Counted from the first letter of the stretch, positions 37,641-64,000 are shown. The stretch: 64,000 nucleotides of DNA from an uncultured candidate division Zixibacteria bacterium (GCA_963668625.2 CAXXKA010000001.1:352001-416000), one strand, 5' to 3'. The notes: a model not told the origin generated them from the letters alone. Translations and numbers: made by a program.

Positions 37641-37642
37641 CA

Positions 37643-47005: not shown

Positions 47006-50000
47006 ATGCAGTCGTTGTCCCTTAAAGCTATATTAATCATCAGCCTGATTGCCGTACTGACGGTTCCGGCGGTAGCTGATATTTATTATTCTGAAATCGT
47101 TTTTAGTGATGATATAGACAATCAAATCGAATTCAGGATTACACCATCAGACTATCAGGCAATCTCTGCCGAGATAAATGGCCGGATGTGGCCGGTCAGC
47201 CAGTTCAGCGATAATGAGTACTCCGTAACCGGTTTTGGTAAATTAAATTCCGGGCAGCCGATTAAAGTATTGTATGAGGGGTATGATGTTAACTCGCTCG
47301 ACAAGGTCAGCCTGGAGTTAATCGGGACGAATGGCGATATCAGCTATAATCGTTTTCCCGGCCTGGCTCTTGATTTGATACCTCTTCAAAGCGTAACCGA
47401 CACCTTGAGATCCGGGATCGCCGGCGATAGCGACGCACATAAAATCGGATTCGATATCTCTACGAATCAGATAATGGAAAAGGGCGAAATATGGATCACG
47501 TTCGAGGCCGGTTTTGATGCGGGCGGGCTGGTTTCTCTGGATTCGATTTCCTATTCGGATGATGACCCGGCTAATAATGGCTCGGAACCGACCATTACCT
47601 CAGTCAGTGTCATCACGAGAACCGTAATCCTTAAACTTGACAGCGGTACACCGGCATCCCCTAATTCCAGGGTAAATGTCGAAATTAAGCCGGTTAATAA
47701 TAGTATCATTGCCGGTGATTACTCCGTCACGGTTCAAACACTCGATTCATTGGGGGCGCTGGTGCATATTCCCACCTCCTCCAACGCATTCATATTGGAT
47801 CCTGATGTTTTAAATAGTGTGGCGGTTACGCCCGGCGGCGATATGAATATCCCCTCGGATTCGATAGTGGTCTTCTCGGCGGCCGGACACGATCAGTATG
47901 GAAATGCCATAGATGGTTTGACATATACCTGGGCAATTACGGTGGATTCGTGCGGCACTATCAATAACGGAACTTTTCAGGCGAAAAAGCTTGGCGATTG
48001 CTATATAACGGCCACGACCGGCGGTTTCGCTGATTCCTCGGGTGTGTTGACGGTTGAAGCAAGCGACCTGGATCGATTCGCAATGACAGGTTATCCTGCC
48101 TCGGTGCAGGCCGGGCAGGTGTTCCCCATACCGATTGCATTAACTGCATATGATGTTAACGACAATATAATTTATGATTTAGCCGATTCGATTTACTTTT
48201 TCTCCAGTGATGATTCGGCAGCTTTTACTTATGATAGCGATAACTGGCTCGATATCGATACCGGGCAGGTTAGTATTCCCGGAAACAATTTCACCCTAAA
48301 ACTGGCAGGTTCTCAAACTATCACTGTCACTAACGGCACACAATCGACTACTTCATCCTCGATTACGGTCTCATCAACTCTTATAGATGATTTCTCGTTC
48401 AGCGCTGTCGGCGATCAGACTGCCGGTGTCTCGTTTAACCTTTCGGTTACCGGGGCTGTTGACCAGTACGGTAATCCTGCCAGTGGCAACGTTATTGTTG
48501 ATGATGTTGTCGGCGGTAACTCCCCCGATGGCGATCCACCGGTGCTTAACAATATTACCGTTACCAACGGCTCGGGTCAGGCCGGTCAGCTTCTGACTAA
48601 TGCTGTTGCCAGTACTCTCGAGGGGGTGGGCGGCAGCGCTACCGTGCAAACGAATTCGTTTACGGTCAACCCCGGCGTCGTAGGCCGTCTGATATTAACG
48701 GGCTATCCTGATGAGGCGACTGCCGGTGAGCAATTCACCTCGGACCCCTTAGTTACGGTGAAAGATATTTTCGGCAATTTAAAAACAAACTATACCGGCA
48801 CGATTCATTTTAAGGGGCCGGAAACAGTGCCCTCTCCATATACTTTCGTAACTCCGCATGCCGGCTCGCATACTTTTCCCGATAACCAGTTCGCATTTCA
48901 AACTGCAGGTTTAAAAAGATTATACGTGTTCAATGCGGATAGTTCACTGGCCGATACATCCTCGGCGATTGATGTATCCGCAAATATTATCTCAAGTTTC
49001 TCGTTCACAGCGCTGGGGTCAGTGACCGCCGGTTCTCCTTTCTCGATAAGCGTATCCAATGCTCTTGATCAATATGGAAATTCCGCATCCGGCACTATTA
49101 CGGTTACCGATAGCTCCGGGGCAGGCAATTCTCCCGATGGTTCATCGCCCTCGTTAAATGATATTATCGTAAACAACGGTTCGGGTAGCGCCAACCAGAT
49201 ACTGGTTGATGTGGGCGCAGCGATTATTAGAGGTATCTCCGAAGCATCAACCGTACAAGCGGTCAATATCACTGTCAACCCGGCGGCCGGGGCGCAATTG
49301 GTGTTAACCGATACTCCGGACACTATAACGGCCGGCCTGGATTTTTCGACGCAATCGATCGATCCGACTGTTACGGTTTTAGATTCGTACGGCAATATCG
49401 CTACCGGTTATGGGGGCACGGTATCGTTTAATAATATAGAAAATCGAGATGGGCCTCATACGTTTATTCCCGCCGATCTAGGCGTTTACCGGTTTGATGG
49501 TGGAAATTTCAGTTTCGAGGCGGCGGGCGCAAGAAAAATAATCGCCACTGACGGCGTGCTGGCGGATACCTCCTCAATTGTCGAGGTTTATCCAGCCGCC
49601 ATAACCTCATACGATCTTAACGCTCCACCATCGGTTGTAGCGGGTACGGCGTTTACGCTTTCGGTCGCTAACGCGGTCGATCAATTCAGTAATGACGCAT
49701 CCGGTACGGTTGTAATAACCGATAGCCTGGGGGCCGGCGGTTCGCCTGATGGTTCGATGCCATCGCTAAATAATATAGAGGTCTCCGGGGGAGTCGGCTC
49801 GGCCCAGCAGGTGCTCGTTGATTCTGTCGCTGCGGCTCGCCTGAAAGGCGCAGTTAACGGCGTAGTCCGGGGGACGAGCGATATCACGGTCGCGCCGGCC
49901 AATGCCAACGAACTGGTATTGAGCAACTATCCCGATACGATAACGGCAGGCCAGGCTTTTCCATCACCGGCTAACGATCCCCTAGTGACATTGAAAGATG

Positions 50001-53000
50001 CCTACGGCAACCTTGCCACTACATACGATGGTACGGTTACATTATCAAATGCCGACAGCCCCGATCTCGACCATGATTTCGTAGCCGGCCACGATGGAAC
50101 TTTCGCATTCGATGGTGATCTGATCGTTTTCAACACCGGTGGTTGGCGTACTTTAATAGTTTCCGATGATACTTTCGGTTTGGCCGATACATCCTCGCCA
50201 ATACAGGTGCTGGGAACTTCATCCATAAGCTCGTTCGATATAACTGCTCCGTCGGACGCCGATGCCGGGGCAGCGTTCAGCGTTAATATCAGCAATGCTC
50301 GTGACCAGTTTAACAACCTGACCTCGGGTACGGTTACGATACAGGCGGTAAGCGGCGCCGGCAATGCTCCTGACGGCTCGAGTCCATCCTTCCACGATGT
50401 TTCGATAACCAATGGTGTTGGCTCGGCGAGCCAGGTGCTGGTTCTGACAGGTACGGCACGCTTGAGAGGTGTAGCGGGCAGTTTTGCCGATACTACCGGC
50501 AATATTACGGTATCGCCGGGTACTCCGGATAAGATAGAGATTACCGATTGTCCTGAAAGTGTAACTGCCGGCAATGGTTTTTCGACCGATCCGATTGTTA
50601 CTATCTACGATTCTTATGAAAATATCGCAACTGACTATACAGGCGAAGTAACTTTTAGCGGCATAGCCACCACACACGCACCATACACATTTATAGGCGG
50701 TGATGCCGGGCAACATACATTCCCTGGAAGCTCTTTCATACCGGAAGAATCCGGGATCAAGCGGGTGATCGTAACCGAGGATCAAGCCTCGCTGGTCGAC
50801 ACCTCCGAGCAATTCACGGTTTATCCCAATGTTATAGCCGGATTCGATTTTGGCGCCGTTGGTGGCGCCACCGCGGGCGTACCCTTCAGCTTAAGTGTAT
50901 CCAACGCGGTAGATCAGTTTGATAATGCCGCCTCGGGTACTATTACCGTTGTAGGTTATACCGGCGCAGGCAACGCTCCCGATGGCTCGGTGCCCTCGTT
51001 TAACAATATCGCTATAACCAATGGGTCGGGGTCAGGTGATCAGGTGCTTGTGCTTACCGGTAACGCTCGTATAAGAGGTTTTTCTGGTTCAGCGGCGGAT
51101 ACCACTAGCACGTTTACCGTTGCTCCCGGAGCTTTTGGCGAGTTACGCATAACCAATACACCTGATACCGTAACCGCAGGCTCGAATTTCTCGACTGACC
51201 CGGTTGTTACCTCATATGATTTATTCGGAAATCTCGCAACCAATTACACCGGCACTATCACATTCGACGGAATTAACCAGGTGCCTTCGGATTATCCATT
51301 CGTAGGCGGGGATAATGGTCAACATTCGTTTTTAGGTTCCGGGTTCAGCCCGCATACAGCCGGTTTCAGACGTCTGATAGTAAGAGACGATGCCGCCTCG
51401 ATCTCGGATACCTCCAACCCGATACAGGTTTATCCTGATACGATTAATTCATTCAGTTTCGCCGCAATCGGTAGCCAAACTGCGGGTGTTCCTTTCGTGC
51501 TGACAGTATCCAACGCTATTGATGCGTATGGCAACAACACCTCGGGTGTTATCGATATCGATACGGTCGGATCATTGAACTCGCCCAACGGCGATTCTCC
51601 CATTATCAACGATATCAACGTGACCGACGGCTCGGGCAGCGCGCAGCAGACATTGGTATTGACCGGCGGATCCGTGCAGCTTAGAGGATCATATAGTACA
51701 TTAGAGGTAACCACCAATACGTTTGCCGTAAATCCCGGCGTGTTGGGTGAGCTTGATGTTGCTGTTAGCTCGCCACAGATATCGGGTGTACCGTTTACCG
51801 CACCCTCGACGATTACTGCAATCGATGTTTTTGGCAACGATAAAACGAATTTCTCGGCTGCCGGTAATAATATCACGATAACCGCCTCCAACGGCGGCGA
51901 TATGGCGGATAATATATTGGATGAGGATTCGGATTTTACAAACGAATTAGCTGATTTGAACGCGCTCGGTGTCACCTATAGCGGCGCCGGCGGCCAGGTA
52001 ACTTTCACCGCTGCCGCGCAATCCGGAATAACCGGTGAGTCCAATGTAGTGCAGATAGGCTCCATACGCGCCGATGATATCTCGCTCGACCTGCGACAGG
52101 TTGTCAGTGGCGATACGGCCAGGGGGACGGTAAGAGTTACTAACCTTGGCAATGTGGCTGCGACTATCACGGATATTATCATTAAAACGGATCCGGAAAT
52201 GTTTAGCCCCTCGTATACGCCGCCTTTAGGCAGCGTTCCGGGCGGCACTGACCAGACCTATGATTTCAAATTCGTGGTGAACACGTTATCCTCGGGCAGC
52301 TATCCGCTCACGATGATTGTCAATGCCAACTATTCCTCGATTATCACCTCCGATACCTTAATCGGCAGAGATACCCTGATTATAGTTACTGAGTCTAACC
52401 TGACTGATATATCCGGCAGTTTGACTCCCGATACGATTTCCAGCGGCTCGGATTACAGCCTGGCGTTCGAGGTTATAAACAATGGTGAAGCGGCTCTTAA
52501 CATTGCAGACTCATCTTATATAACCTTTACCGATGGCAGCGAAACATACATGGCTGAGCTCGCCCAGAACAGTTACGTGGGCGCCGGTGATCAGACTTAT
52601 CTGTATTTCAATTCGGCATCCGTGAATGCTGCTTTTATACCTAATTCCTATAGTGTCAGTTTCCAAATTTATGGCTATGATATACATAGAGTTATTGATG
52701 ATCTTATAACGATAACAGATGATATAATGGTGCAATCACCCAGCAATATAACATATTTGGCGAACCTTACGCCGTTAACTCTTCTAACAGGCGCTGAGGT
52801 ACGTTTCTCGGCCAGGGTTAGCAATTCCGCCCAGGCCGATTTGATTATCAATCCCGATCAGACGAAAATAACATTCAGCGATGTAAATGAAAATCAATAC
52901 ATAGCCTATATCGATACTGCCGCCGCATACCACGTGGAGGTTATTGAGGGTGGAGGCGATACCACTCTGACATTCGTGCGTGAACTGCTGTTACCCGGTT

Positions 53001-55303
53001 TCACGGCCGGCAACTACACCCCGACCATTACCATAGCCGGGACGCAGAATCAGCGCTCCTATTCGGCTAATGTGCCAACCGAATCTATCCTCATATTACA
53101 ACCGGGTGAGGTCAGGATGGATTCGCTTTATACGGTCGCGCCGAACTCGCCCAAGGTAAACGCCAATCAGGAATTTACCATTCACGGCTTTATCAGTAAC
53201 CTGGGTAACGAGATAGTGGATTCGGTTCATATAGTGATGTCCACGGATGGCGGCTCGACATTTAATGACACTGTCGATGTCGGTACGATTAACAGTCTTG
53301 ATGGCGCGGCGTTCGATTATACCGTAACGGCGGCATCATCGCCGAATTTGTTAGAGGCATTTTACGTTGAGATAGAGAAAGCGGTAAACAGGCTATCACA
53401 CGATGATTCGCCTATAGCCACGCCTTTAGATAACGGCACGGTAGCTATTATTGAAAATGACGCGATATTCGAACTGGATACATTATATCTCACGGATGAT
53501 TCACTTTCCACCGGGCAGGCATTCACCGTTTACACACGAGTAGTGCACACCGGCAGTGAAAGCTACGATGGCACGAACCAGTTGATTATTGATCTCGGCG
53601 GTGATAGTGAATATTTAGTAGCCGATTCGCTGCCCCGCGATTTCTCGATCGGCCAGCTCGTATCATGGAACGTGACCGCACCCGAAACAGAGCGAAACGC
53701 CACGACAGTCACGGTATCGTTTAACGGCGAGATTGTCGATTTAAACGACAGCACAACCGCGCTGGGGCCGGATTCGGTGTTGAATTCGACGATTCAGGTC
53801 ACTTCAGAGGCCGCTATTGCGCACAGGCCGATGCTTGTCTCGCCCTCGGGGGCTACCGATAGCGTGCTCTCGACAGGCCAATCACTGGTAGTATCCGATT
53901 CGTTATTCCCGACCGGCAACGTGGCCACGAGCTACGGCCGTTTAACCTTGCCGGAGGGATTCTCCAGTTCCGATCCGCTAACTCAGGAATTATCAGGAAA
54001 CGCGGTAAACTGGTCGATACTCGCCAGCGAGCAGGAAAAAATAGATTCGCTGGGATTCGAGTGCTGGACTATCGATTCCAATACCGGCGATATCGCCTAT
54101 AGCGATACTACCTGGATACGAATAGAGGTGGAGAGCAAAGCCACGCTGTCGCTAAACAGCACCGTGACCTCGCCGCCTTCGGCTATGGATAGGATTATCT
54201 CACCCGGAACCGAATTTACGCTTGAAGCTACCGCCTCGAATATCGGCAATGCTGATGTTGGCACGGGCGAGCTTACATTGAGCATTGACACCGATAGGTT
54301 TACTGTCACCGAGGATCTGACCCGGACATTCTCGGCCGGTACGCCGGTTGTCTGGACTATATTCTCGCCCGAGGAACAAATTTTGGATGGTGTGGTGGTT
54401 TCCGTGTTGATGCCAACAGTGGCTAACGATTTGAACACGGGGCTTCCCTCGGTAGTATTGAACGATTCCTCCGGCATGGAGATCATTATAAAACGCGAGC
54501 TGCCCGATCTGGTGCTTCAAAATCCTACGCCGCTTGGCGGAGCCGCCGTAGCGGGTATGCCGTTGGATATTTACCGTCTGACATTCCATAACTCTATAGA
54601 TATCACCAACGATCAGATCGGTATGTACACCTTCGGATTCAGGCTCAAATCGGATGGTGTCAGGATCAGTCCCTCGGATGTTGTATCAGCCTCGGTGCTA
54701 ACTATTAATGATGAGCAGTATGCCGGCGTGTTAAACGATTCGGTTGTGACTTTCAGTATCGATCCGATTTACATAATCGAGCCGGATTCCTCGGTGCTTT
54801 TAACTATCAATGTGACTCCGGTTGCGAACCCCACGTATAGATCGTTTAGTGTAAACTTCCAATCCTCCGATATTTTCGCGAGGGTGATTATCGGTGGTTC
54901 GGCCGAGCAGCAGATTGAGGTCGTATTGCCGGATGGCGAGGATTTCCTTTTGGATGGCGAGACGCTGGCAACCTTAGAGGGCAGTTTCCTGACTTCGACC
55001 AAGGTCAATCAAAATCCGTATATAGCTGCGAACGGGAACTTGAGTATCGGTTATATACTCGAAAATGACGCCACGCTAGATATTACTATTTACAATGTCA
55101 CCGGGGATGTTGTCTGGGAGTATACCGCTAATTCGACCAACGGTTACGGTACTGCCGGGCCTCACTATGATGATGACGTCGCTATTCCCTGGGATGGTAG
55201 AAACTCCAGGGGTGATAAAGTGCTCAGCGGCGTGTATTACATTTTCGTTACAAATAACGCTACCGGGCAAACAACCAATTTGAAGGTGGCTGTAGTATGG
55301 TAA
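47006..55303 (+). CDS. Giant (2765 aa) Ig-like repeat surface protein/adhesin with FlgD-Ig/T9SS-type C-terminal domain
   Basis: Signal peptide; alternating ~100-aa repeats; C-terminal NQNPY...IYNVTGDVV...WDGRNSRG..VLSGVY...KVAVVW. Confidence 0.85.
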   Translation: MQSLSLKAILIISLIAVLTVPAVADIYYSEIVFSDDIDNQIEFRITPSDYQAISAEINGRMWPVSQFSDNEYSVTGFGKLNSGQPIKVLYEGYDVNSLDKVSLELIGTNGDISYNRFPGLALDLIPLQSVTDTLRSGIAGDSDAHKIGFDISTNQIMEKGEIWITFEAGFDAGGLVSLDSISYSDDDPANNGSEPTITSVSVITRTVILKLDSGTPASPNSRVNVEIKPVNNSIIAGDYSVTVQTLDSLGALVHIPTSSNAFILDPDVLNSVAVTPGGDMNIPSDSIVVFSAAGHDQYGNAIDGLTYTWAITVDSCGTINNGTFQAKKLGDCYITATTGGFADSSGVLTVEASDLDRFAMTGYPASVQAGQVFPIPIALTAYDVNDNIIYDLADSIYFFSSDDSAAFTYDSDNWLDIDTGQVSIPGNNFTLKLAGSQTITVTNGTQSTTSSSITVSSTLIDDFSFSAVGDQTAGVSFNLSVTGAVDQYGNPASGNVIVDDVVGGNSPDGDPPVLNNITVTNGSGQAGQLLTNAVASTLEGVGGSATVQTNSFTVNPGVVGRLILTGYPDEATAGEQFTSDPLVTVKDIFGNLKTNYTGTIHFKGPETVPSPYTFVTPHAGSHTFPDNQFAFQTAGLKRLYVFNADSSLADTSSAIDVSANIISSFSFTALGSVTAGSPFSISVSNALDQYGNSASGTITVTDSSGAGNSPDGSSPSLNDIIVNNGSGSANQILVDVGAAIIRGISEASTVQAVNITVNPAAGAQLVLTDTPDTITAGLDFSTQSIDPTVTVLDSYGNIATGYGGTVSFNNIENRDGPHTFIPADLGVYRFDGGNFSFEAAGARKIIATDGVLADTSSIVEVYPAAITSYDLNAPPSVVAGTAFTLSVANAVDQFSNDASGTVVITDSLGAGGSPDGSMPSLNNIEVSGGVGSAQQVLVDSVAAARLKGAVNGVVRGTSDITVAPANANELVLSNYPDTITAGQAFPSPANDPLVTLKDAYGNLATTYDGTVTLSNADSPDLDHDFVAGHDGTFAFDGDLIVFNTGGWRTLIVSDDTFGLADTSSPIQVLGTSSISSFDITAPSDADAGAAFSVNISNARDQFNNLTSGTVTIQAVSGAGNAPDGSSPSFHDVSITNGVGSASQVLVLTGTARLRGVAGSFADTTGNITVSPGTPDKIEITDCPESVTAGNGFSTDPIVTIYDSYENIATDYTGEVTFSGIATTHAPYTFIGGDAGQHTFPGSSFIPEESGIKRVIVTEDQASLVDTSEQFTVYPNVIAGFDFGAVGGATAGVPFSLSVSNAVDQFDNAASGTITVVGYTGAGNAPDGSVPSFNNIAITNGSGSGDQVLVLTGNARIRGFSGSAADTTSTFTVAPGAFGELRITNTPDTVTAGSNFSTDPVVTSYDLFGNLATNYTGTITFDGINQVPSDYPFVGGDNGQHSFLGSGFSPHTAGFRRLIVRDDAASISDTSNPIQVYPDTINSFSFAAIGSQTAGVPFVLTVSNAIDAYGNNTSGVIDIDTVGSLNSPNGDSPIINDINVTDGSGSAQQTLVLTGGSVQLRGSYSTLEVTTNTFAVNPGVLGELDVAVSSPQISGVPFTAPSTITAIDVFGNDKTNFSAAGNNITITASNGGDMADNILDEDSDFTNELADLNALGVTYSGAGGQVTFTAAAQSGITGESNVVQIGSIRADDISLDLRQVVSGDTARGTVRVTNLGNVAATITDIIIKTDPEMFSPSYTPPLGSVPGGTDQTYDFKFVVNTLSSGSYPLTMIVNANYSSIITSDTLIGRDTLIIVTESNLTDISGSLTPDTISSGSDYSLAFEVINNGEAALNIADSSYITFTDGSETYMAELAQNSYVGAGDQTYLYFNSASVNAAFIPNSYSVSFQIYGYDIHRVIDDLITITDDIMVQSPSNITYLANLTPLTLLTGAEVRFSARVSNSAQADLIINPDQTKITFSDVNENQYIAYIDTAAAYHVEVIEGGGDTTLTFVRELLLPGFTAGNYTPTITIAGTQNQRSYSANVPTESILILQPGEVRMDSLYTVAPNSPKVNANQEFTIHGFISNLGNEIVDSVHIVMSTDGGSTFNDTVDVGTINSLDGAAFDYTVTAASSPNLLEAFYVEIEKAVNRLSHDDSPIATPLDNGTVAIIENDAIFELDTLYLTDDSLSTGQAFTVYTRVVHTGSESYDGTNQLIIDLGGDSEYLVADSLPRDFSIGQLVSWNVTAPETERNATTVTVSFNGEIVDLNDSTTALGPDSVLNSTIQVTSEAAIAHRPMLVSPSGATDSVLSTGQSLVVSDSLFPTGNVATSYGRLTLPEGFSSSDPLTQELSGNAVNWSILASEQEKIDSLGFECWTIDSNTGDIAYSDTTWIRIEVESKATLSLNSTVTSPPSAMDRIISPGTEFTLEATASNIGNADVGTGELTLSIDTDRFTVTEDLTRTFSAGTPVVWTIFSPEEQILDGVVVSVLMPTVANDLNTGLPSVVLNDSSGMEIIIKRELPDLVLQNPTPLGGAAVAGMPLDIYRLTFHNSIDITNDQIGMYTFGFRLKSDGVRISPSDVVSASVLTINDEQYAGVLNDSVVTFSIDPIYIIEPDSSVLLTINVTPVANPTYRSFSVNFQSSDIFARVIIGGSAEQQIEVVLPDGEDFLLDGETLATLEGSFLTSTKVNQNPYIAANGNLSIGYILENDATLDITIYNVTGDVVWEYTANSTNGYGTAGPHYDDDVAIPWDGRNSRGDKVLSGVYYIFVTNNATGQTTNLKVAVVW

Positions 55304-57111
55304 GAAAATATATTATAATACTCATACTGCTTTTCACCTCGTTATCGTTCGCCGGTAACGGTGGGTATCGTTCGCCGTTTGCGGTAGGATTCGGCGCTCG
55401 TCAATTGGGAATGGGCGGCGCGACCGTAGCAAATATTAAATCCTCGAGCTCGATATTCTGGAACCCGGCCGGATTGGCTAATGTCGATAGATCCGAGATA
55501 CAGCTTTTTCACATGTCACTGTTCATGGATACCCGCTATGATTTCTTCGCCTTAGCTTACCCGACAACCTCGCTGGGCGCGTTCGGTATCGGTGTCGGCG
55601 ATCTGTCCTCGGGCGAGTTTGACAGGATAGAGGACTATGTCACGATCGGGACTTTCTCCAGCCGCCAGGATATTTTCATGTTCGGTTACGGCTCCGAACT
55701 GTTCCGGGGCTTATATACCGGTATGACTATCAAAGGTGTGCATTACGATATCGCAGGCTATAAAGATTCAGGATTCGGTTTCGATGTCGGTATGATGTAT
55801 AATTTCGGTTTCATGAAAGGCTTGTCTGTCGGTTTCAAGGGGACCGATCTGGGGGGGCCGAATATCAGGCTCAACTCCACCGATCAGGGTTACCCGACTG
55901 CCTACCGGGGCGGGCTGGCTTACGAGACTCATCCCGGTGACAAACATAGCGTTTTAGTTAATTTCGATTATGAGAACACCGAAAAGCTCGGTTCTGATAT
56001 CTACGTCGGGGGAGAGTTCGGGTTTAATGATATGTTGTTCTTACGGGCCGGTTATATGGCTGATAAGCTGACGTTCGGAAGCGGTCTGTCATATCATGGG
56101 TTCAATATAGACTACGCATTAGCCTCCATGTCCGACCTGGAAACTTCGCATCGTATCTCGGTGAGCTACGCTTTCGGTGGCTCGGTTCGGGCCAAGCGTG
56201 ATTCACGAGAGAGCAGGATCGCCGAAAGACGTTTGAACGATTACAAAGATGAGCAAGAGTCCGAGCGCAAGAGTAAGCTCGATAAAGAGCTGGAAAAAGC
56301 AGAATCGCTGGAGGACGAGGGTAAAACCTACGAGGCCATCGAATCATACTATCGTGTTCTGGCTCTGGATGTGCAAAACGAGAAAGCCTCGAATAAAGTA
56401 ACAGTATTGTTCGAACGAATCCGTCAGGATATAGCCAATGATGCCGGTAAGGGCTATACGGATCAACTTATGCAAAGCCAGATAGAACTGGGTGATAGCT
56501 ATTTTGAACGGAAACAATACAAGGACGCCGAGGAACAGTACAACCTGGCTTTAATTCTTAATCCTGAAAATCAATATGCAAAAGACCGTTTGGCCGAGAT
56601 CGAACAGATCAGCCTGGATGAAATAGATGCATTGAATAATTCGGCCAACAGCCAGATAACCAACGGCAACTACGACGCGGCTCTGGAGTCGGTCAGCAAA
56701 GCGCTGGCAATCGATCCGAATAACAGGGTCACGCTGGCAGGACGAGATAGGATCATCAATTTAGTCGAGTCCTCTAAGTATTTGAATGAAGCCCTGAAAT
56801 ATTTCGATCAGGCCGATTATACCAGGTCGGCAGCTCTAGTCGATTCCGCCCTGGCGAGCAACCCTAATTCCGAAGGCGCAAAAAGCTTAAAACGTCAACT
56901 GGCTAAATATACCGCTGATGTTACCACGCTCGAGGATATCAAGAAAAACAATGACCACTGGAGCACATATCTCCAGGGCATGGAAAAATACCAGGCGGGT
57001 GAATATAAAGAGGCGATTAAGCTCTGGCAATCGTTGCTCGAATCATATCCCAATAATCCAAACCTGAAACGGAATATCGAACAGGCTGCCGAAAGAGCGG
57101 CTAATGAGTAA
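55297..57111 (+). CDS. PorV/PorQ-like (UPF0164) outer-membrane barrel fused to TPR domain
   Basis: GFGARQLGMGGA..A, IFWNPAGLA, HRISVSYAF barrel end, then coiled-coil and TPRs; overlaps the adhesin stop. Confidence 0.8.
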   Translation: MVRKYIIILILLFTSLSFAGNGGYRSPFAVGFGARQLGMGGATVANIKSSSSIFWNPAGLANVDRSEIQLFHMSLFMDTRYDFFALAYPTTSLGAFGIGVGDLSSGEFDRIEDYVTIGTFSSRQDIFMFGYGSELFRGLYTGMTIKGVHYDIAGYKDSGFGFDVGMMYNFGFMKGLSVGFKGTDLGGPNIRLNSTDQGYPTAYRGGLAYETHPGDKHSVLVNFDYENTEKLGSDIYVGGEFGFNDMLFLRAGYMADKLTFGSGLSYHGFNIDYALASMSDLETSHRISVSYAFGGSVRAKRDSRESRIAERRLNDYKDEQESERKSKLDKELEKAESLEDEGKTYEAIESYYRVLALDVQNEKASNKVTVLFERIRQDIANDAGKGYTDQLMQSQIELGDSYFERKQYKDAEEQYNLALILNPENQYAKDRLAEIEQISLDEIDALNNSANSQITNGNYDAALESVSKALAIDPNNRVTLAGRDRIINLVESSKYLNEALKYFDQADYTRSAALVDSALASNPNSEGAKSLKRQLAKYTADVTTLEDIKKNNDHWSTYLQGMEKYQAGEYKEAIKLWQSLLESYPNNPNLKRNIEQAAERAANE

Positions 57112-57143: not shown

Positions 57144-57175
57144 GGGGGTGTTCGATCGAACGCCTCTTTTTTTTT
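57144..57175 (+). terminator. Intrinsic terminator
   Basis: gggggtgttcgatcgaacgcctc hairpin followed by T9. Confidence 0.75.
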
Positions 57176-57468
57176 AGGTGTCATTCAGCACCAAAGAGGA
57201 TATACAAATCTAACCGCAGGCTTATCAACAAAGACGTTTTTTCATTCGGATGCCGGCTACTTTAAGAGCCCGGGGATTCCTGTCGGGAGTATTTTATTGG
57301 TGTTAAAACCGCAGGTATTTAACCTGCTCATCACTACCATCCCAATTGCCGGCAAGATCGAATATAAACAAAACTGATTTCCTGCCGAAAATCTGTAAAG
57401 CATGCGATTCATCTTTACTTTGTGGCTTTTTTCAACTATACTGTAAGTTTATAAGAGAGGGACGGATA

Positions 57469-60400
57469 GTGTTTAAGAAACCGACTGAAATATTCATGAG
57501 TTTCAACGCCGAGGAGAGTATGCTCCCGGATATCAGGAGCTCGATCGACGACACTATCAAAGATCTCGGCCTTAGTTCCAAGGATAAAAACGGTATACTC
57601 CTGGCTATCGAGGAGGCTTGCACTAACGTTATTCGTCACGCTTACCTTTATGGCCCGGGTACGATCCGCCTTAAAATCAGGATGCAGCCAACGCGGGTGA
57701 CATTTTCTATTTATGATAAAGGTCGGCGTTTCGATTTCGATCACACCGATACGCCCGATCTGGATCGTTATATTAAAACCGGCAGGAAAGGCGGCCTCGG
57801 CTTATATCTAATCCGCAAAATGATGGATTCCGTCGATTACTATTCGCGCGGAGATGAGAACGAACTGCGGATGATCAAAGAGGTCAAGCCGCGCAAGCAG
57901 GCCGTGTTGAAAACGCGGGGCATGACGATCCGCCTGAAATTTGCTATCTGGGCATCGCTGGTGGTATTCGGTATGGTAGCTGCGATCTCCCTGTACTATA
58001 ATCATCGAAATTCAGTCGCTGTTGAAGAACGTTTTTTCGAGGAAGCCCGTAATGTCGCTCAGACAACGGCCTTGAACGCCGCCGATAAAATCGCGGTCGA
58101 TAACGAACTGGAATTGGCCGGGCTGGCTAACTCGCTAATGAACGGTAATCCAAATTTAGCATATGTTACCATAGTCGATGAAAATAATCTGGTCTGGGCG
58201 GATGTTCTCGATCCCTCTAAATTCTACTCGCAATACGCTTACCCGGCAGGCGTGGATTCCTCTCTCGAGGGAGTATTCCAGAAATATGTCAATAGCGATG
58301 GCGAAGCTATTTACCACTTGATAAAAAAAATATCTCATAACGAGCATACTCTCGGGTATGTAAACCTGGGATTCTCCGAAACGGCATTAGGCGATCTGCT
58401 AAAATCCTCACAACACTCGATCCTTCTGTTTGCCTTAATGGGATTGGTTATAGGTTTGACGGCGGTGTACTTGTTGTCGGCTTACTTTGTCAAACCGATA
58501 CAGAAACTCACCGAAGGCGTCTTGAAAATCGGACAGGGCAATCTTGAAGAGGCGCTGCCGGTAGAGGGCGAGGACGAGTTCTCCGAGATAGCGCGGGCAT
58601 TTAACGAGATCACCACCAAGTTCAAGAAAGCCCAGGTCAATGTTGTCGAACAGGAACGTATGCAGAAGGAGATGCAGGTTGCCCAGGAGATTCAGCATGC
58701 GCTACTGCCTAACAGGTTCCCCGAGATCGAGGGTTATGAGTTGGCGGCGGTTTATCGGGCGGCCAAGGATGTCGGCGGTGACTATTTCGATTTCGTCTGG
58801 ATAGACGAAGATACGCTGGGGATAGCGGTGGCGGATGTCTCCGGTAAAGGAGTGCCGGGCTCGCTGGTCATGACAATGATTCGTACGGCTATCAGGCTCG
58901 AATCGCGCGGTAACCAGAACCCCAGTGAGATTCTGGCGAAAGTTAACGATTTCGTGGCGGAGGATGTCAAGAAGGGTATGTTCATCACGATATTCTTCAT
59001 TATTCTCGACTCTAAAAGTCGCCAGATATCGTTTGCCTCGGCCGGCCATAATCCTATGATATTGTATCGAAAAGATTCCGATAAATGCTATTTTCTGAAT
59101 CCCAAGGGCATGCCGTTGGGATTAACCCTGCCGGATAATATATCATTCGGCGGTGATCTCCAGACCGACAGGCTGAAGCTGAAAAAGGATGATATGCTGG
59201 TGATTTACACCGATGGTATCACCGAGGCGATGAACACCCGCTCCGAGCAGTACGGTAACGATCGGCTGATCGATTTTATACGCGATAACGCTCATTTAAC
59301 CCCCGATGACTTCGCCAAGATGCTCGATAAGGACCTGGCTCATTTTACCGGCAACGCTCCTCAAAATGATGATATCACTCTGGTTGTGGTTAAAGAGAAA
59401 ATCATGGCCGATGAGATCATTCTGGAAAAACGCAAGCAACTGCTTATGATGGTCGAAAACGAGGGTGTTCCGATAGCCGATGCTTGCAAGGAGATGGGCG
59501 TTTCGGTTTCGACATTCTATAAATACCGTCGCCGCTGGAAACGCGAGGGCGCGGCCGGCTTGCTGAATAAACGTCTCAGGGCGGATGAGGGAATCAAACA
59601 GTTGCCGTATCAGGCGCGCAAGGTTCTGCTGGATGTCGTCCGTGAAAATCCGGAATGGGGCGCCTCGAGACTTCAGCAAAGAATGGCCGAAATAGGCGAA
59701 AGCTTCACTGTCAAGAATGTTTATGATGAACTGGTTAATATGAGGCTCAATACCAAGAAACTCCGCCTGGCTTATGTTGAAAGGGTTGGCCATTTAAAAC
59801 CCGAACAGAAGGAGATGCTCGAAAAAGAGATATTGCGCGACGCCCAGAAAGAGGTAGATCGCTCCGAGTATGTCGATGGCCTTGAGAAAAATATCGAGAA
59901 ACGAGAGGTTGAAAAGATAACCCAGGAAACAGGCCGGGTAATTTCTCAGTTGAAAAAGTTAAAACCGGCACTGGAAAACGATAAAGTATATTCGGAGATT
60001 TCGAAAGAACTTGAAAAACTAGAAGGCGGCGAAGAGATTGCCGGATTGTTCAAGACGATCATGCGGAAAGTGGATGATACTATTCCCACCGCTGCTGAAC
60101 CGCAAACGCCGGTTTCATCACCCGAACCAGAGGCTGAAACAGAACCATCGAAGCCAGAGGCGGTGCCTGTACCCGAGCCTGAACCAGTACCTGAACCGGA
60201 GGCCATAAATGTATCGGCCACCCCGGAGGCTAAATTCGAGGAAGAGGTATCCGAGCCCTTAGAGATCAGACCCGATGAAAAAGTGTCCGAACCTGGGGAA
60301 ATGCCGACAGTAAAAAGAGTGGAGGTCGCTCCTCAAAGTGATGAGAAGATTGAGATAAATTTGAAAGCGAAATCCGCGGATAAAGATGATAAAAAGGAAA

Positions 60401-60471
60401 AAGAACAAAAATCAGTTTTCGATGATATGGATGAATACGAAAGAAAGCTCTTAAAGAAATTCAAGAAATAA
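57469..60471 (+). CDS. Membrane partner-switching regulator: RsbW-like kinase + sensor + HAMP + SpoIIE/PP2C phosphatase + transposase-like HTH
   Basis: EEACTNVIRHAY, DKG, GGLGL (HATPase); 2 TM; KPIQKL..DEFSEIARAFN (HAMP); VGGDYFD, ADVSGKG, SAGH, YTDG, DDIT (PP2C); ACKEMGVSVSTFYKY HTH; start GTG 57469 behind GAGGG. Confidence 0.85.
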   Translation: MFKKPTEIFMSFNAEESMLPDIRSSIDDTIKDLGLSSKDKNGILLAIEEACTNVIRHAYLYGPGTIRLKIRMQPTRVTFSIYDKGRRFDFDHTDTPDLDRYIKTGRKGGLGLYLIRKMMDSVDYYSRGDENELRMIKEVKPRKQAVLKTRGMTIRLKFAIWASLVVFGMVAAISLYYNHRNSVAVEERFFEEARNVAQTTALNAADKIAVDNELELAGLANSLMNGNPNLAYVTIVDENNLVWADVLDPSKFYSQYAYPAGVDSSLEGVFQKYVNSDGEAIYHLIKKISHNEHTLGYVNLGFSETALGDLLKSSQHSILLFALMGLVIGLTAVYLLSAYFVKPIQKLTEGVLKIGQGNLEEALPVEGEDEFSEIARAFNEITTKFKKAQVNVVEQERMQKEMQVAQEIQHALLPNRFPEIEGYELAAVYRAAKDVGGDYFDFVWIDEDTLGIAVADVSGKGVPGSLVMTMIRTAIRLESRGNQNPSEILAKVNDFVAEDVKKGMFITIFFIILDSKSRQISFASAGHNPMILYRKDSDKCYFLNPKGMPLGLTLPDNISFGGDLQTDRLKLKKDDMLVIYTDGITEAMNTRSEQYGNDRLIDFIRDNAHLTPDDFAKMLDKDLAHFTGNAPQNDDITLVVVKEKIMADEIILEKRKQLLMMVENEGVPIADACKEMGVSVSTFYKYRRRWKREGAAGLLNKRLRADEGIKQLPYQARKVLLDVVRENPEWGASRLQQRMAEIGESFTVKNVYDELVNMRLNTKKLRLAYVERVGHLKPEQKEMLEKEILRDAQKEVDRSEYVDGLEKNIEKREVEKITQETGRVISQLKKLKPALENDKVYSEISKELEKLEGGEEIAGLFKTIMRKVDDTIPTAAEPQTPVSSPEPEAETEPSKPEAVPVPEPEPVPEPEAINVSATPEAKFEEEVSEPLEIRPDEKVSEPGEMPTVKRVEVAPQSDEKIEINLKAKSADKDDKKEKEQKSVFDDMDEYERKLLKKFKK

Positions 60472-61214
60472 TGCATAAAGTTGCTGTAATAGCCTCTAAA
60501 GGGGGCACGGGTAAAACCACAACCGCTATAAATCTGGCCCATGCTGTTAGTTTGATGGACAAGAAAGTACTGCTTATCGACTGCGATTCCCAGGGCTCGG
60601 CCTCGCTGGCATTCGAGTTAAACGGTGTGCAAGGCCTTTCAGACCTTCTTTTAACCAACAATGTCGATATATATAATGTTAGACCTAACCTGTATCTTGT
60701 TGGCTCGGGCAGGTCTGATATCTATATGGTAGAGCGTTACTTAGCCCAGCAGGGTGAGGCTGATTATCCTCTGGCAAAAGCGTTAAATCGATTTACCGGC
60801 GTAGATTTGATAATTTTAGATTGCTCCCCGTCGATAAATATAATAAATTCAAACATTCTTAATTATGCGGATCATGTCCTGATTCCTGTTTCGATGGACT
60901 ATTTCGCACTGGAGGGAGCAGCTTTAACGCTGAAAGTGATTAAGGAAATTAGTTCGATCAATAAAAAGCAAATCAATGTTTTAGGATATTTATCAACTTT
61001 TTATGATGTCAGGACTAAAATATCAAAACAGATTTTTGCCGAGCTGAACGAAAAATACCAAAATAAAGTATTCGAGACGCCGATAAGAATTAATACACAG
61101 ATTAAGGAGGCGCAAATGCATCGCAAGACAATATTCGAGTTTGCGCCGTACTCTCACGGGGCTTACGATTATTATCGTTTCGTGAAAGAGGCTTTAGCAA
61201 GGTTAGACGGGTAA
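60471..61214 (+). CDS. ParA/Soj family ATPase (orphan)
   Basis: KGGTGKTT, LLIDCDSQ, ILDCSP, YDVRT; TAATG-coupled to the upstream gene; no parB adjacent. Confidence 0.88.
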   Translation: MHKVAVIASKGGTGKTTTAINLAHAVSLMDKKVLLIDCDSQGSASLAFELNGVQGLSDLLLTNNVDIYNVRPNLYLVGSGRSDIYMVERYLAQQGEADYPLAKALNRFTGVDLIILDCSPSINIINSNILNYADHVLIPVSMDYFALEGAALTLKVIKEISSINKKQINVLGYLSTFYDVRTKISKQIFAELNEKYQNKVFETPIRINTQIKEAQMHRKTIFEFAPYSHGAYDYYRFVKEALARLDG

Positions 61215-61218
61215 TTTT

Positions 61219-62013
61219 ATGAGTGATATCAAGATTTCAGTTGACAGTACTACCGCGCCGGGCAGCGATAAAGAGGTTACCGTAATCCGGGTTGACGGTG
61301 TAATCGATACCATGACCGCCACGGAGCTCGAGAAGGTAGCCAACTCTCTTTTATCCCAGAAGAAGTACAATATTATCGTTGATCTGGGCGGTGTGGATTA
61401 TATATCATCGGCAGGCTGGGGTATATTTATTTCCAATATTCGGGAAATTCGCCTCAATGACGGCGATATAAAGCTGGCCCGGATGATACCCAACGTATAC
61501 GAGATTTTCGAACTACTGGAGTTTGACAGTATCCTCAAAGCATTCGATAATCTTGAAAAGGCCAAAGCGGATTTTGCCGGGGCGGTGCCGGCCGAGCAGA
61601 CGAGGGTCGAGATACTCGAGCCAAAACCTGTCACCGTAGGCAAGCAGAGCTCTGATGGATTGGATGCCCAGCTTGAAAGCGGCCGCCAATCGGATGCAAA
61701 TCTCGGTAGCGCTCCCTCGACGGAGTTCGGGGAGAATGCCGGCAATCCTGATTCACCGCGGATAAAAAACGAAAATACCACCGCCGAGCCGGGTGTGGAA
61801 CAGGCTCCGGCAAGCGTTCGGAAATTCGAGGACGCTATAATGGAAATTATCGGTAAAGACCCTTTTCTCAGTGTCGGCGAAATTAAAAATGCCGTGCTGA
61901 AAGAGTTCCCCAGAACAGGTTTTTTGAAGACCTGGTGGACATTGCGTAAATTGGGTTTAAGTTCGAAAAAGAAACGGTTTTATTTTGCCAGAACCCGCAG
62001 GTTTACTAAGTAG
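61219..62013 (+). CDS. STAS anti-anti-sigma protein with C-terminal HTH-like extension
   Basis: G.IDT, DLGGVDYISSAGWG phosphoserine loop; acidic linker; basic C-terminal domain. Confidence 0.85.
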   Translation: MSDIKISVDSTTAPGSDKEVTVIRVDGVIDTMTATELEKVANSLLSQKKYNIIVDLGGVDYISSAGWGIFISNIREIRLNDGDIKLARMIPNVYEIFELLEFDSILKAFDNLEKAKADFAGAVPAEQTRVEILEPKPVTVGKQSSDGLDAQLESGRQSDANLGSAPSTEFGENAGNPDSPRIKNENTTAEPGVEQAPASVRKFEDAIMEIIGKDPFLSVGEIKNAVLKEFPRTGFLKTWWTLRKLGLSSKKKRFYFARTRRFTK

Positions 62014-62038
62014 TACCGTTAATATTATTTAGAAGTGA

Positions 62039-63853
62039 ATGTTGATTTTTTGGATAATACCACTCAGTATAGTTATTGTACTGGCAGTTATAGCAATTGC
62101 CGTTTTACTTGTCAGGTTATATAAAACCACTAAAAAAACCCGCAAGGTAATAAGCGAACTATACGATCTAAAAACGGACTATAGTTTCAGGGATAAGGTT
62201 TTTCAGCTTAATAAGGCGTTTTTCGGTTTCAGGCATGGCAATCAAAGAAAAAGCCAGTTATTGAAAATCGCCGAGGATCTCAAGGCCGGACTTCACCTGG
62301 GTAAATTCATTATTTACTGTTCACAGAGAAACATGATGCAACCCTCGATGGGGATCGGCTACAAGCTCAGAAGTTTAAATCCGTTCAGGATTGATTTCAT
62401 CGATAAGATAATTCCCACGGAGAGCGGCGGCAAGAAATCGAATCGCAGGAGCTTCACGTTCGATCTCGAGCAAATCAAGCAAATTGCGAACACGGGCGAG
62501 TTGGAAATAGCCCCTGTTGGTATGTTCGGTTTCCTATATAAAGCCGGTAATAATCTCACCCTGTTCATCGGAGAGGACCCACGGGGAGAACTGGCGAAGT
62601 ATTGTACCATCGATGAATTCAATTCCGCGATCTGGCCGCTTCTTAACAGTTTCTGCCAGAATTATAGCCAGATCAAGAAGAATCAGGACAAGGCAAAAAC
62701 ATTGCAATCGCAATTGAAAAACGCACAGACCGAGCTAAGCGGACTTTCACGTAAGCTGAAATATAAATCTATCGATCTGCGTTCGTTTTATAAAATTTCC
62801 AATGAGCTTTTTTCGAATTTCGATGAAGCTCAATTGTTTGATTCGCTGATAAATTCTATAGACAGTGTCTTAAAACCCGCCAATATCGCTATAGTCGTTC
62901 CCGATCCCGATAACAGGGAGTTTTTCCGAATCGCAGCGGCCAAAGGCAAATTGAATCCTGATATGAAAAAGCTGAAATTCCCGGTTGATGATCATATCAG
63001 GAAGCTTCTAAAAACGCGCAAACAGGCAATATTACTGCCAATATTAAGCTCCGGCTTACCTGATGATAATCCGTTTATAGAGATGACTTTAACTCATGGT
63101 TACCTGGTTATGGAGAGATTGGAAGCCGATTCGGAGATAAAAGGTTTGGTGTTAATCGGCGAAAAATCGGATGGTCGTAATTACGAGGATTCGGAACTGG
63201 ATATTTTCTCGACGATTTCCAATATGGCCTCCTTAGCCATGAACAATTTAAAACAGTACCACGTAATAGAGAAAATGTCGTACACTGATTTTCTGACGGA
63301 GGTTTACAACTACCGGTATTTCTACAAACGTCTTCGTGAGGAGATATTTCGCGCTAAAAGATTTGACAGGATGCTGGCATTAGTGATATTTGATATCGAT
63401 AATTTCAAATCGTTTAACGATACCTACGGTCATCAAGCCGGTGATGAGGTTTTGCGAAATCTGGCACGGCTGGTCACCGATAGTGTACGAGCGATCGATA
63501 TCGTAAGCCGATATGGTGGTGAGGAGTTCTGTATTATCATGCCTGATACGGGCTTTGCCAACTGTTTGATATTAGTCGAACGATTGAGAAAAATGATTGA
63601 GGAATATAAATTTAGGAGCGACCTTGTCGATGAAGGTTATAGTATCACAGTGTCGATCGGAGGAGCGATTTACCCTGTAGATGCTCAAACACCTGATCGA
63701 TTCATATACTGTGCCGATATGGCTTTGCTCAAGGCAAAACAGGATGGCAGAAACCGATCGATGATGTTTAATAGTTTAATGCTTGAGGATGAGGCTTTAG
63801 TCAAAGGCTCTCAACAACAATTAACGGATATGAGGATTTATGAGGATTTATAA
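62039..63853 (+). CDS. Membrane-anchored GAF-GGDEF diguanylate cyclase
   Basis: N-terminal TM, coiled coil, GAF, TDFLTEVYN, DIDNFK..NDTYGH, RAID I-site, RYGGEEF. Confidence 0.92.
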   Translation: MLIFWIIPLSIVIVLAVIAIAVLLVRLYKTTKKTRKVISELYDLKTDYSFRDKVFQLNKAFFGFRHGNQRKSQLLKIAEDLKAGLHLGKFIIYCSQRNMMQPSMGIGYKLRSLNPFRIDFIDKIIPTESGGKKSNRRSFTFDLEQIKQIANTGELEIAPVGMFGFLYKAGNNLTLFIGEDPRGELAKYCTIDEFNSAIWPLLNSFCQNYSQIKKNQDKAKTLQSQLKNAQTELSGLSRKLKYKSIDLRSFYKISNELFSNFDEAQLFDSLINSIDSVLKPANIAIVVPDPDNREFFRIAAAKGKLNPDMKKLKFPVDDHIRKLLKTRKQAILLPILSSGLPDDNPFIEMTLTHGYLVMERLEADSEIKGLVLIGEKSDGRNYEDSELDIFSTISNMASLAMNNLKQYHVIEKMSYTDFLTEVYNYRYFYKRLREEIFRAKRFDRMLALVIFDIDNFKSFNDTYGHQAGDEVLRNLARLVTDSVRAIDIVSRYGGEEFCIIMPDTGFANCLILVERLRKMIEEYKFRSDLVDEGYSITVSIGGAIYPVDAQTPDRFIYCADMALLKAKQDGRNRSMMFNSLMLEDEALVKGSQQQLTDMRIYEDL

Positions 63854-64000
63854 GTTAATAATAGCCATATTCGCGGTCTTGACCGTTACTGTATCGGCCC
63901 AGGATGACCAGGCATACAATATCGGCATCGATGATGTCTTGAGCATTACGTTCTGGCAGGAGCCCGATCTTAATTCCGATGTCAGGGTGAGAAACGATGG
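63840..64000 (+). CDS. Polysaccharide biosynthesis/export (Wza/SLBB-type) protein, 5' part only
   Basis: Manual translation MRIYKLIIAIFAVLTVTVSAQDDQAYNIGIDDVLSITFWQEPDLNSDVRVRNDG fits the Poly_export Y.IG..D.L.I..W..PDL...V.V..DG pattern. Confidence 0.8.
   Translation, partial: MRIYKLIIAIFAVLTVTVSAQDDQAYNIGIDDVLSITFWQEPDLNSDVRVRND

Follow-up and report, generated by a model that had tools for sequence, protein, structure and literature searches.

Regulation by partner switches that dispense with a sigma factor is a growing theme in work on biofilms, and for most such switches little is known of what they act on. A 64,000-nucleotide (nt) stretch of Zixibacteria DNA (hereafter the window; coordinates count from its first letter and all window features lie on the + strand) raises the question of what such a switch might control. 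Between positions 57469 and 63853 the window holds four closely packed genes, g1 to g4, that encode a membrane kinase/phosphatase sensor, a ParA ATPase, a STAS protein and a diguanylate cyclase. A fifth gene, wza (g5), begins at their end, and all five are co-oriented. The original prediction for this locus saw in it a partner switch that acts on cyclic di-GMP (c-di-GMP) and surface polysaccharide, with a possible DNA-binding output. We find that the observation is confirmed and strongly conserved, and that the interpretation placed on it is partly supported.

Our preferred reading, to which we assign a probability of roughly 55%, is that these genes work as a partner-switching module that has no sigma factor and is anchored to the inner membrane, with a cyclase output and ParA docking. 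Its parts differ in strength. The functional pairing of g1 and g3 as a kinase/phosphatase-STAS core is well supported by sequence comparison. A cyclase/exopolysaccharide (EPS) output is plausible, by analogy with known systems, and lineage-specific; the output itself, be it the cyclase, DNA or positioning, is something we infer. ParA is the new element, and the evidence ties it to the C-terminal tail of the sensor, not to the STAS protein. The docking of ParA on that tail is the most specific of the new claims. If the pairing of tail and ParA is true, serine-phosphorylation signalling, c-di-GMP and ParA-type spatial organisation are linked in one operon.

Gene order and conservation

The five genes are all present and spaced as first described, overlapping or 4–25 bp apart: g1 and g2 overlap by 1 nt, g2 and g3 are separated by 4 nt and g3 and g4 by 25 nt, and g4 and g5 overlap by 14 nt. 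Pfam profiles confirm the domain make-up originally given for the sensor, ParA, STAS and cyclase genes. The cluster had also been said to lack a cognate sigma factor; indeed, no sigma-70 family domain occurs in the genes scanned from window position 35622 to L002 2305.

Is this arrangement a matter of chance? Gene order in relatives had been named beforehand as a point on which the proposal could be refuted. Among 17 related loci fetched for gene order, 15 keep the order g1-ParA-STAS-GGDEF-Wza, so the proposal is not refuted and the arrangement is not due to chance. The exceptions are L026, which has g1 alone, and L027, in which g1 lacks its helix-turn-helix (HTH) module and ParA is absent. 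With g1 as query, a single match spans kinase through HTH in 20 of 30 related genomes and is split across contig ends in a further six; the match ends after the PP2C domain in G025 and G030, and G024 and G029 have PP2C-level matches only. In relatives labelled Calditrichia or KSB1, sensor and STAS gene are both present, and the genes after them are unrelated.

The labels borne by homologues of its genes assign the genome to Zixibacteria. Of 285 Zixibacteria genomes, 231 have a g3 orthologue (E<=1e-25) in single copy; among the 198 of high quality the figure is 173. The ParA orthologue (E<=1e-55) is restricted to 56 of the 285; the genomes that have it fall in six families (55 of 58 genomes), and the remaining 14 families have none (0 of 226). 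The module is near-universal in Zixibacteria, and its related forms, in genomes labelled Krumholzibacteriia, Latescibacterota, Calditrichia, KSB1 and Bacteroidota, almost always lie beside genes for a giant surface protein and a PorV-like protein, which argues that it is probably a main regulator of surface properties. The probable hosts of this regulation are abundant uncultured bacteria of sediment and soil.

The kinase/phosphatase and its STAS partner

The sensor gene g1 (57469..60471) encodes 1000 residues from a GTG start that is backed by the orthologue alignment. An RsbW-type kinase domain comes first (57505..57879, residues 13–137; HATPase_c_2, E 1.3e-25); the RsbW model NF003144 matches it at E 1.3e-17, under the equivalog cut-off. 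Two transmembrane segments follow (57940..58476; residues 158–176 and 318–336, Kyte-Doolittle window peaks 2.09 and 2.61), enclosing an extracytoplasmic loop of ~140 residues that has no family match in profile scans. The next block (58474..59394) comprises a HAMP domain (residues 336–380, 1.5e-10) and a PP2C/SpoIIE phosphatase (residues 447–642, 1.8e-50) that covers positions 2–190 of the 192 in the SpoIIE profile. Behind it lies a bipartite transposase-type HTH module (59428..59784, residues 654 to ~772), matched by HTH_23, HTH_29, HTH_28 and HTH_32 at residues 654–751 (4e-10 to 1.3e-7) and by IS630 and IS481 N-terminal models. After this module g1 ends in a long acidic Pro/Glu-rich tail. 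The Pfam scan of g1 gave no Response_reg (REC) match.

The putative target of both enzymes is encoded by g3 (61219..62013). Its STAS domain (residues 18–115; Pfam E 4.3e-16; TIGR00377 57.5 against a cut-off of 53.45) is followed by a disordered linker of ~75 residues, a small HTH-like C-terminal domain and a basic tail. Ser64 (codon 61408..61410), the predicted phospho-acceptor, aligns with the first Ser of the SpoIIAA D-S-S-G motif, a position that is Ala in the mutant chain 1tid_B and that a legend of the CapS paper names Ser58 (PMC13373217). Both Ser63 and Ser64, with the surrounding block, are invariant across 15 of 15 g3 orthologues.

Moreover, g1 and the STAS gene adjoin in every lineage sampled, and in some relatives they are a single gene. 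Nine of ten longer g3 homologues are chains of 1403–1477 residues with a HATPase_c_2 kinase, HAMP, SpoIIE, HTH and STAS, and four of the five fused homologues examined have the order kinase-(sensor)-PP2C-HTH-STASx3. Such fusions argue strongly, on comparative grounds, for g1 and g3 working together. The earlier claim of a kinase/PP2C switch acting on a STAS serine thus fares well as a prediction: the domains are present, Ser64 is conserved, and Rosetta-stone fusions join g1 to STAS.

In Krumholzibacteriia- and Latescibacterota-labelled loci (L111-L136; proteins P0260, P0262, P0266 and P0268) the whole switch is carried by one protein of ~1400–1500 residues, comprising kinase, transmembrane sensor, HAMP, PP2C, HTH and three STAS copies, with the same tail motif as in g1. 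Genes for the giant protein and the PorV-like protein precede it; after it come the ParA gene, a gene for a TPR protein and a further two STAS domains. These relatives presumably resemble the all-in-one partner-switch proteins of the Rv1364c type. They differ from that type in being membrane proteins with three STAS copies and a candidate ParA-docking motif, and in the window the STAS protein is separate.

A different peculiarity marks the STAS gene of ParA-less Zixibacteria lineages, which has an A10 run directly after the STAS domain. A run of at least eight A at this place occurs in 12 of 18 loci checked (L027 at 5400-5600, L086, L089-L093, L095, L103-L105 and L108). In L027 the frame shifts at the run, and the HTH-like domain is encoded in a different frame. 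The window's g3 has no such run, its longest being A6 at 61764.

ParA and the sensor tail

The second gene, g2 (60471..61214), encodes a 247-residue Soj-like ParA of a distinct subfamily (AAA_31/CbiA ParA, 2.3e-33). Its closest solved relative is T. thermophilus Soj, matched at full length (residues 3–245, E 7.1e-37). The Walker motifs are invariant in 15 orthologues, including the K10–T18 block with its deviant Walker A (K-G-G-x-G-K-T). There is no ParB gene beside g2. The single ParB_N match of the genome, at C8:463190, adjoins a second, chromosomal Soj-like gene (C8:462366-463121) on a different contig, and g2 is therefore an extra, orphan ParA. Two further ParA-like genes of the same genome (C6:381845-382585 and C10:204740-205477) are 29% and 25% identical to g2. 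In L079, a distant unclassified metagenome-assembled genome, another ParA-like ATPase, this one joined to a CBM48/glycogen-binding module, is encoded a few genes downstream of the switch (16981-18048).

What might an orphan ParA bind? Alignment of g1 orthologues shows a variable acidic linker and then a conserved C-terminal peptide. In g1 the last 45 residues (60334..60468), the predicted ParA-docking tail, contain an I-D/E-I element and a Y-x-x-K-L motif. We scored the motif W/F/M-x-x-Y-x-x-K/R/Q-L/M/I within the last 45 residues of the sensor in two sets of loci. The first, centred on Zixibacteria, comprises 80 loci located through the g3 alignment: the motif is present in 39 of 44 ParA-positive loci and in none of 22 ParA-negative ones, with 14 not assessable. 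The second, centred on Krumholzibacteriia and Latescibacterota, was gathered independently through a fused Krumholzibacteriota protein and comprises 43 loci. Here the motif terminates fused kinase-PP2C-HTH-STASx3 proteins, with the ParA gene directly after, and it is present in 18 of 18 ParA-positive and 0 of 14 ParA-negative loci (11 not assessable). Across these loci, the pairing of motif and ParA persists through phylum-level divergence.

Structure prediction points the same way. Two ParA copies, ATP and the last 45 residues of g1, modelled with custom alignments, give a complex score of 0.63, and the best of three controls gives 0.02. The score is the model's own confidence, and in a calibration that had neither ligand (ATP) nor custom alignments 58 of 80 solved complexes and 2 of 110 mismatched pairs attained that level. 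The runs agree on at least 86% of contacts, with a predicted local distance difference test score (pLDDT) of at least 69 for the partner. In the model the invariant tail residues Y35, K38 and L39 are predicted to contact ParA residues 226–235, and the upstream I-D/E-I element to contact ParA residues 28–34, 48–50, 63–70 and 103–111. The 226–235 patch (G-A-Y/F-D-Y-Y) is kept in the ParAs of Krumholzibacteriia and Latescibacterota and replaced in the genome's own chromosomal Soj. The g1 tail thus probably docks on a patch of ParA that is specific to the subfamily. Co-occurrence and the structure model both back this docking; the model supports binding without demonstrating it.

The cyclase and the surface genes

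The fourth gene, g4 (62039..63853), encodes a membrane-anchored GAF-GGDEF protein with one transmembrane segment, a predicted diguanylate cyclase. Its GGDEF domain (residues 415–573) matches at E 1.1e-43. Both motifs that the original prediction had ascribed to a cyclase beside the switch can be read in the g4 translation, GGEEF intact and RxxD (R-A-I-D) five residues upstream of it. The Pfam match to GAF is weak (E 0.0058), and g4 aligns to the GAF-GGDEF protein DgcA over positions 12–336 of 340. Of the 80 loci, 64 have a GGDEF gene after the STAS gene, 11 lack one although their downstream sequence is long enough to show it, and 5 are not assessable. Such a gene follows the STAS gene in L079 too, though EPS genes do not come after it there.

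Two kinds of surface gene flank the module. Upstream lies a giant open reading frame (47006..55303, 2765 residues), probably for a surface protein of T9SS (type IX secretion system) type. Its C-terminus weakly resembles that of PorZ (3.1e-6) and CHU_C (0.0086), and it also has an Ig-like match. The 'giant adhesin' first described at this place therefore stands as a reading frame, and the label adhesin rests on these weak Ig-like and T9SS C-terminal matches. The C-terminal part of the giant protein recurs upstream of g1 in related loci. Between this gene and g1 is uT (55297..57111), which encodes an outer-membrane beta-barrel of the PorV/PorQ family (NF033709 PorV_fam, 120.2 bits against a cut-off of 90) fused to TPR repeats, which are also matched. 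The module's most constant neighbour across phyla is this PorV-like-TPR gene, which immediately precedes g1 in 59 of 60 assessable loci.

Downstream, g5 (63840..64000) is the start of wza, a Poly_export gene that runs past the window; in L001 the full gene has Poly_export and SLBB. Of 67 assessable loci, 50 have wza after the module on the same strand; 4 have it inverted and 13 lack it. The control of surface polysaccharide originally proposed thus reflects no more than a local context, within Zixibacteria.

HTH-type domains

HTH domains had been claimed on both switch partners. The claim stands for g1, where Pfam supports it, and not in the same way for g3, where the candidate domain is below the Pfam threshold. 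This four-helix HTH-like domain (61825..62004, residues 203–262) ends in the basic tail and is modelled with a pLDDT above 90 in the full protein and of 84.6 when folded alone. Its family is small, 141 representatives of 1.84 billion at E<=0.001, most of them STAS fusions or products of ~90 residues. Ten relatives of the domain were scanned: five join tandem HTH to family-2 glycosyltransferase (GT2), one is a LysM fusion, two are HTH-only and two are short proteins without a Pfam match. In the five GT2 fusions (P0211, P0215, P0236, P0221 and P0231), where the matches are weaker, tandem transposase-type HTH modules lie N-terminal to processive-type glycosyltransferases, a second link of such modules to polysaccharide synthesis.

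The C-terminal domain and basic tail are kept on all STAS orthologues examined, including those of lineages without a ParA or GGDEF neighbour, namely RBG-1-type Zixibacteria and the Calditrichia- and KSB1-labelled loci. As the g3 domain persists where g1 lacks an HTH and ParA is absent, the two HTH-type additions are not a matched pair. Nor is their presence on both partners new: CapK/CapS is a precedent from 2026 (PMC13373217).

Relation to known systems

We take HsbR to have kinase and PP2C in one chain, like g1. The logic that leads from partner switch to cyclase is already known from HsbA-HsbD, BgrV-BgrR and SiaC-SiaD. The HptB-HsbR-HsbA-HsbD and BgrSTUWV-BgrR systems resemble the present one in bringing together STAS, an RsbW-type kinase, PP2C and a GGDEF cyclase; as outlined in PMC8457831, STAS phosphorylation by these enzymes controls a GGDEF cyclase and biofilm polysaccharide in HsbA-HsbD of Pseudomonas aeruginosa and BgrV-BgrR of Sinorhizobium meliloti. 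Unlike them, g1 has no REC or phosphorelay input, and its enzyme pair is split around a two-segment transmembrane sensor and HAMP. Here, too, the STAS protein has an extra HTH-like domain, and the sensor has a transposase-type HTH and a predicted ParA-docking tail. The same account describes SiaABCD of P. aeruginosa, in which the HAMP-PP2C protein SiaA and the kinase SiaB set a switch protein that binds and activates the cyclase SiaD (PMC8457831). Residues 319–640 of g1 align with SiaA, but the scores are far under the equivalog cut-offs (SiaA 91.7 against 700 bits, SiaD 155.2 against 290), g3 is a true STAS protein with no DUF1987 (SiaC) match, and kinase and phosphatase are fused here.

SypE/SypA of the Vibrio fischeri syp polysaccharide locus, where an RsbW-like kinase and PP2C act on STAS according to passages of PMC3610818 and PMC4517449, shares with our module an N-terminal kinase and C-terminal PP2C in one protein, a STAS target and the absence of a sigma factor. 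SypE is soluble with a central REC domain, whereas g1 is a transmembrane sensor with HAMP, and the HTH, ParA and cyclase components are additional. Polysaccharide synthesis is also under STAS phosphorylation control in HenR/All4160, as reported in part of PMC13555669.

The closest parallel to HTH-type domains on both kinase and STAS partner is CapK/CapS (Chambers et al., EMBO J 2026), in which, by the relevant sections of PMC13373217, the RsbW-like kinase bears an HTH and CapS, a STAS protein with a winged HTH (wHTH) and a conserved Ser that is phosphorylated, is a DNA-binding repressor. CapK/CapS lacks a phosphatase, membrane sensor, ParA and cyclase; it guards immune operons and senses single-stranded DNA. 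CapK is an HTH-STAS-GHKL kinase, an architecture different from that of g1. CapS has a MarR/ArsR-like wHTH immediately next to its STAS domain, whereas the g3 domain is set off by its linker. No sequence link to g3 is seen for CapS when the g3 profile is matched to solved chains at E<=0.01.

For ParA the nearest parallels are ParA/MinD ATPases with protein cargo, such as ParC/PpfA with chemoreceptor arrays and McdA-McdB with carboxysomes, where the partner has a short ATPase-binding region (sections of PMC11407121). Likewise, g2 is a Soj-like ATPase without a ParB neighbour, its partner protein has a short candidate binding region, and the cargo would not be DNA. Unlike those systems, the predicted contact peptide lies at the C-terminus of a polytopic membrane kinase/phosphatase and is modelled on the C-terminal helix patch of one monomer, not at the N-terminal stimulating-peptide site. 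The pertinent sections of that review list no kinase/phosphatase membrane cargo (PMC11407121).

The Hsb, Bgr, Sia, Syp, HenR and Cap systems all lack ParA, a transposase-type HTH and a two-segment transmembrane/HAMP sensor placed between the kinase and the phosphatase. Full-text searches, supplements aside, turned up no publication in which a ParA-type ATPase is combined with a STAS partner switch, and nothing about STAS systems of Zixibacteria.

A model and its alternatives

How might the parts work together? The RsbW-type serine kinase of g1 would be cytoplasmic and N-terminal, and its PP2C phosphatase follows the two transmembrane segments and HAMP. An extracytoplasmic signal would most likely shift the balance between the two activities, both of which would act on Ser64 of g3, a link backed by conservation and by the fusions. 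Phosphorylated or unphosphorylated g3 would then change partners. In Zixibacteria its likeliest partner would be the adjacent g4 cyclase, by analogy with the Hsb, Bgr and Sia pairs, and the switch would then set local c-di-GMP for neighbouring surface-matrix genes: the giant T9SS-type protein and its PorV-like partner upstream, and Wza/Wzc PEP-CTERM-type EPS downstream. The HTH-like domain and basic tail of g3 may provide a second output, through DNA binding as in CapS or through docking. The motif in the acidic sensor tail would dock a dedicated Soj-like ParA in about one-fifth of Zixibacteria species (the 56 of 285) and in Krumholzibacteriia- and Latescibacterota-labelled relatives, and the docked ParA would probably tie the sensor complex to the nucleoid, or position it.

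Several observations pull away from this model. No adjacent GGDEF gene is found in the Calditrichia-, KSB1-, Bacteroidota-, Krumholzibacteriia- or Latescibacterota-labelled modules, which argues that the cyclase is a lineage-specific output and that the ancestral output was something else. STAS-GGDEF fusions are absent from the ten longer g3 homologues, which is weak evidence. Linkage to EPS genes (50 of 67) is looser than linkage to the PorV-like gene (59 of 60), and no adjacent EPS matches occur in the Calditrichia-, KSB1-, Krumholzibacteriia- or Latescibacterota-labelled modules. As to docking, five ParA-positive loci of the first set carry divergent tail variants, the genomes within each set are related to one another, so that few independent gains or losses lie behind the co-occurrence, and the complex score has the limits given above. 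The HTH assignment of g3 is also weak. HTH_Tnp_Tc3_2 is sub-threshold in 8 of 15 orthologues (best E 0.0023), Foldseek returns nothing for the domain at E<=0.001, and hhalign places it in the same register as the second sub-domain of the g1 HTH module with modest support, a probability of 32% (E 4.7e-4) that becomes 43% (E 2.6e-4) with a richer profile.

The g3 domain could nevertheless be the output itself. The STAS-HTH protein would then be a CapS-like, phospho-controlled DNA-binding regulator that represses or activates the flanking surface operons; g1 would assist at the same DNA sites through its own HTH, and the cyclase would share the regulation as a neighbour without being targeted directly. 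CapS, a STAS-wHTH repressor freed by phosphorylation as stated in parts of PMC13373217, provides the precedent. The retention of the domain and its basic tail on every STAS orthologue examined, even without ParA or GGDEF, fits this idea, as does its confident folding as a helical bundle; the top weak Foldseek matches are all DNA-binding wHTH domains, for example Fur/PerR (TM-score 0.55–0.61), and HTH_Tnp_Tc3_2, sub-threshold in the eight orthologues, reaches E 2.8e-4 on the L079 STAS protein. Yet no HTH match on g3 is significant, the ~75-residue disordered linker is unlike the compact CapS, and the eight solved chains that match the g3 profile at E<=0.01 are all classical anti-sigma antagonists, with CapS not among them. 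A conserved operator is lacking as well, the one palindrome upstream of g1 being seen in this genome and L013 only, and among distant relatives of the domain are HTH modules joined to membrane GT2 glycosyltransferases, for which binding to DNA is no obvious role. On balance we regard this alternative as rather unlikely, while taking it seriously. A more tentative proposal, and an unlikely one in our estimate, builds on the tail: sensor and Soj-like ParA would be a new ParA/adaptor pair, in which the kinase/phosphatase is ParB-like, with its HTH module and docking peptide. The nucleoid-bound ATPase would position or license a surface hub, and the phosphorylation state of the STAS-HTH protein would be the switch. 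Brought together in that hub would be the giant T9SS-type protein with its PorV-like partner, the genes for EPS export and a local source of c-di-GMP. If this is true, a complex for signalling and secretion joins the known cargo classes of ParA/MinD, across several phyla of the FCB group.

Might the real client lie upstream? The module could control or position the secretion or display of the giant T9SS-type protein with its PorV-like-TPR partner, and the EPS genes and cyclase would then be later additions specific to Zixibacteria. The near-constant position of the PorV-like-TPR gene directly before g1 speaks for this, as do its PorV_fam score above cut-off and the fact that loci labelled Krumholzibacteriia, Latescibacterota, Bacteroidota and KSB1, which show no GGDEF or Wza matches after the module, have the same pair before it. 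Against it, a terminator-like hairpin and a conserved promoter-like element part uT from g1 as separate units (see below), the T9SS signal of the giant protein is weakly detected, and no mechanism joins a cytoplasmic STAS switch to an outer-membrane shuttle. We consider this distinctly improbable. That g2 is instead a BcsQ- or FleN-like factor, serving in assembly of the EPS machinery or as an anti-activator of sigma-54 regulators, with no relation to the g1 tail, would accord with full-length sub-threshold matches (TIGR03371, 84 bits against 157.85; CBP_BcsQ, 2.7e-5) and with the sigma-54 response regulators that flank the region. We reject this reading on scores and gene context and think it very improbable: g2 matches Soj (7e-37, full length) far better than it does the MinD or BcsQ models, ParA keeps its position, flanked by g1 and the STAS gene, in lineages that lack EPS genes, and its presence tracks the g1 tail motif, in a tail that is predicted to bind it.

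Transcription unit and flanking regulators

A terminator-like hairpin (57144..57176; 10-pair stem at 57144-57167 and a T-run) ends the upstream unit, and a sigma-70-type promoter-like element (57414..57442, TTTACT-17-TATACT) lies 27 nt before the g1 start. With the hairpin after uT and this element before g1, the genes from g1 onward appear to be a transcription unit separate from those upstream. Most of 16 relatives compared have CTTTAC-N17-TAnAAT before g1. A sigma-54 promoter for g1 was considered and rejected; the GG-N10-GC pattern is unconserved in 17 upstream regions and has no match in the window.

Overlapping the -35 element of the g1 promoter is an imperfect palindrome, GTAAAG-N12-CTTTAC (57389-57416), which L013, of the same genus, shares and more distant relatives lack; no conserved operator was found upstream of g1.

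Past the window, wza is followed by genes for a Wzz/GNVR chain-length protein, a TPR protein, a BY-kinase and a priming sugar transferase, then by PEGA/DUF5683 and fn3 proteins, a PrsK-like kinase and a PrsR response regulator. By their profile matches these genes are an XrtA/PEP-CTERM-flavoured EPS locus headed by wza. The PrsK-like histidine kinase and the PEP-CTERM-box PrsR (544.8 bits against a cut-off of 502.6) end this locus, from L001 18885 to L002 2305 (C1:426884-430305). A second kinase/sigma-54 regulator pair lies at 35622-38980 of the window.

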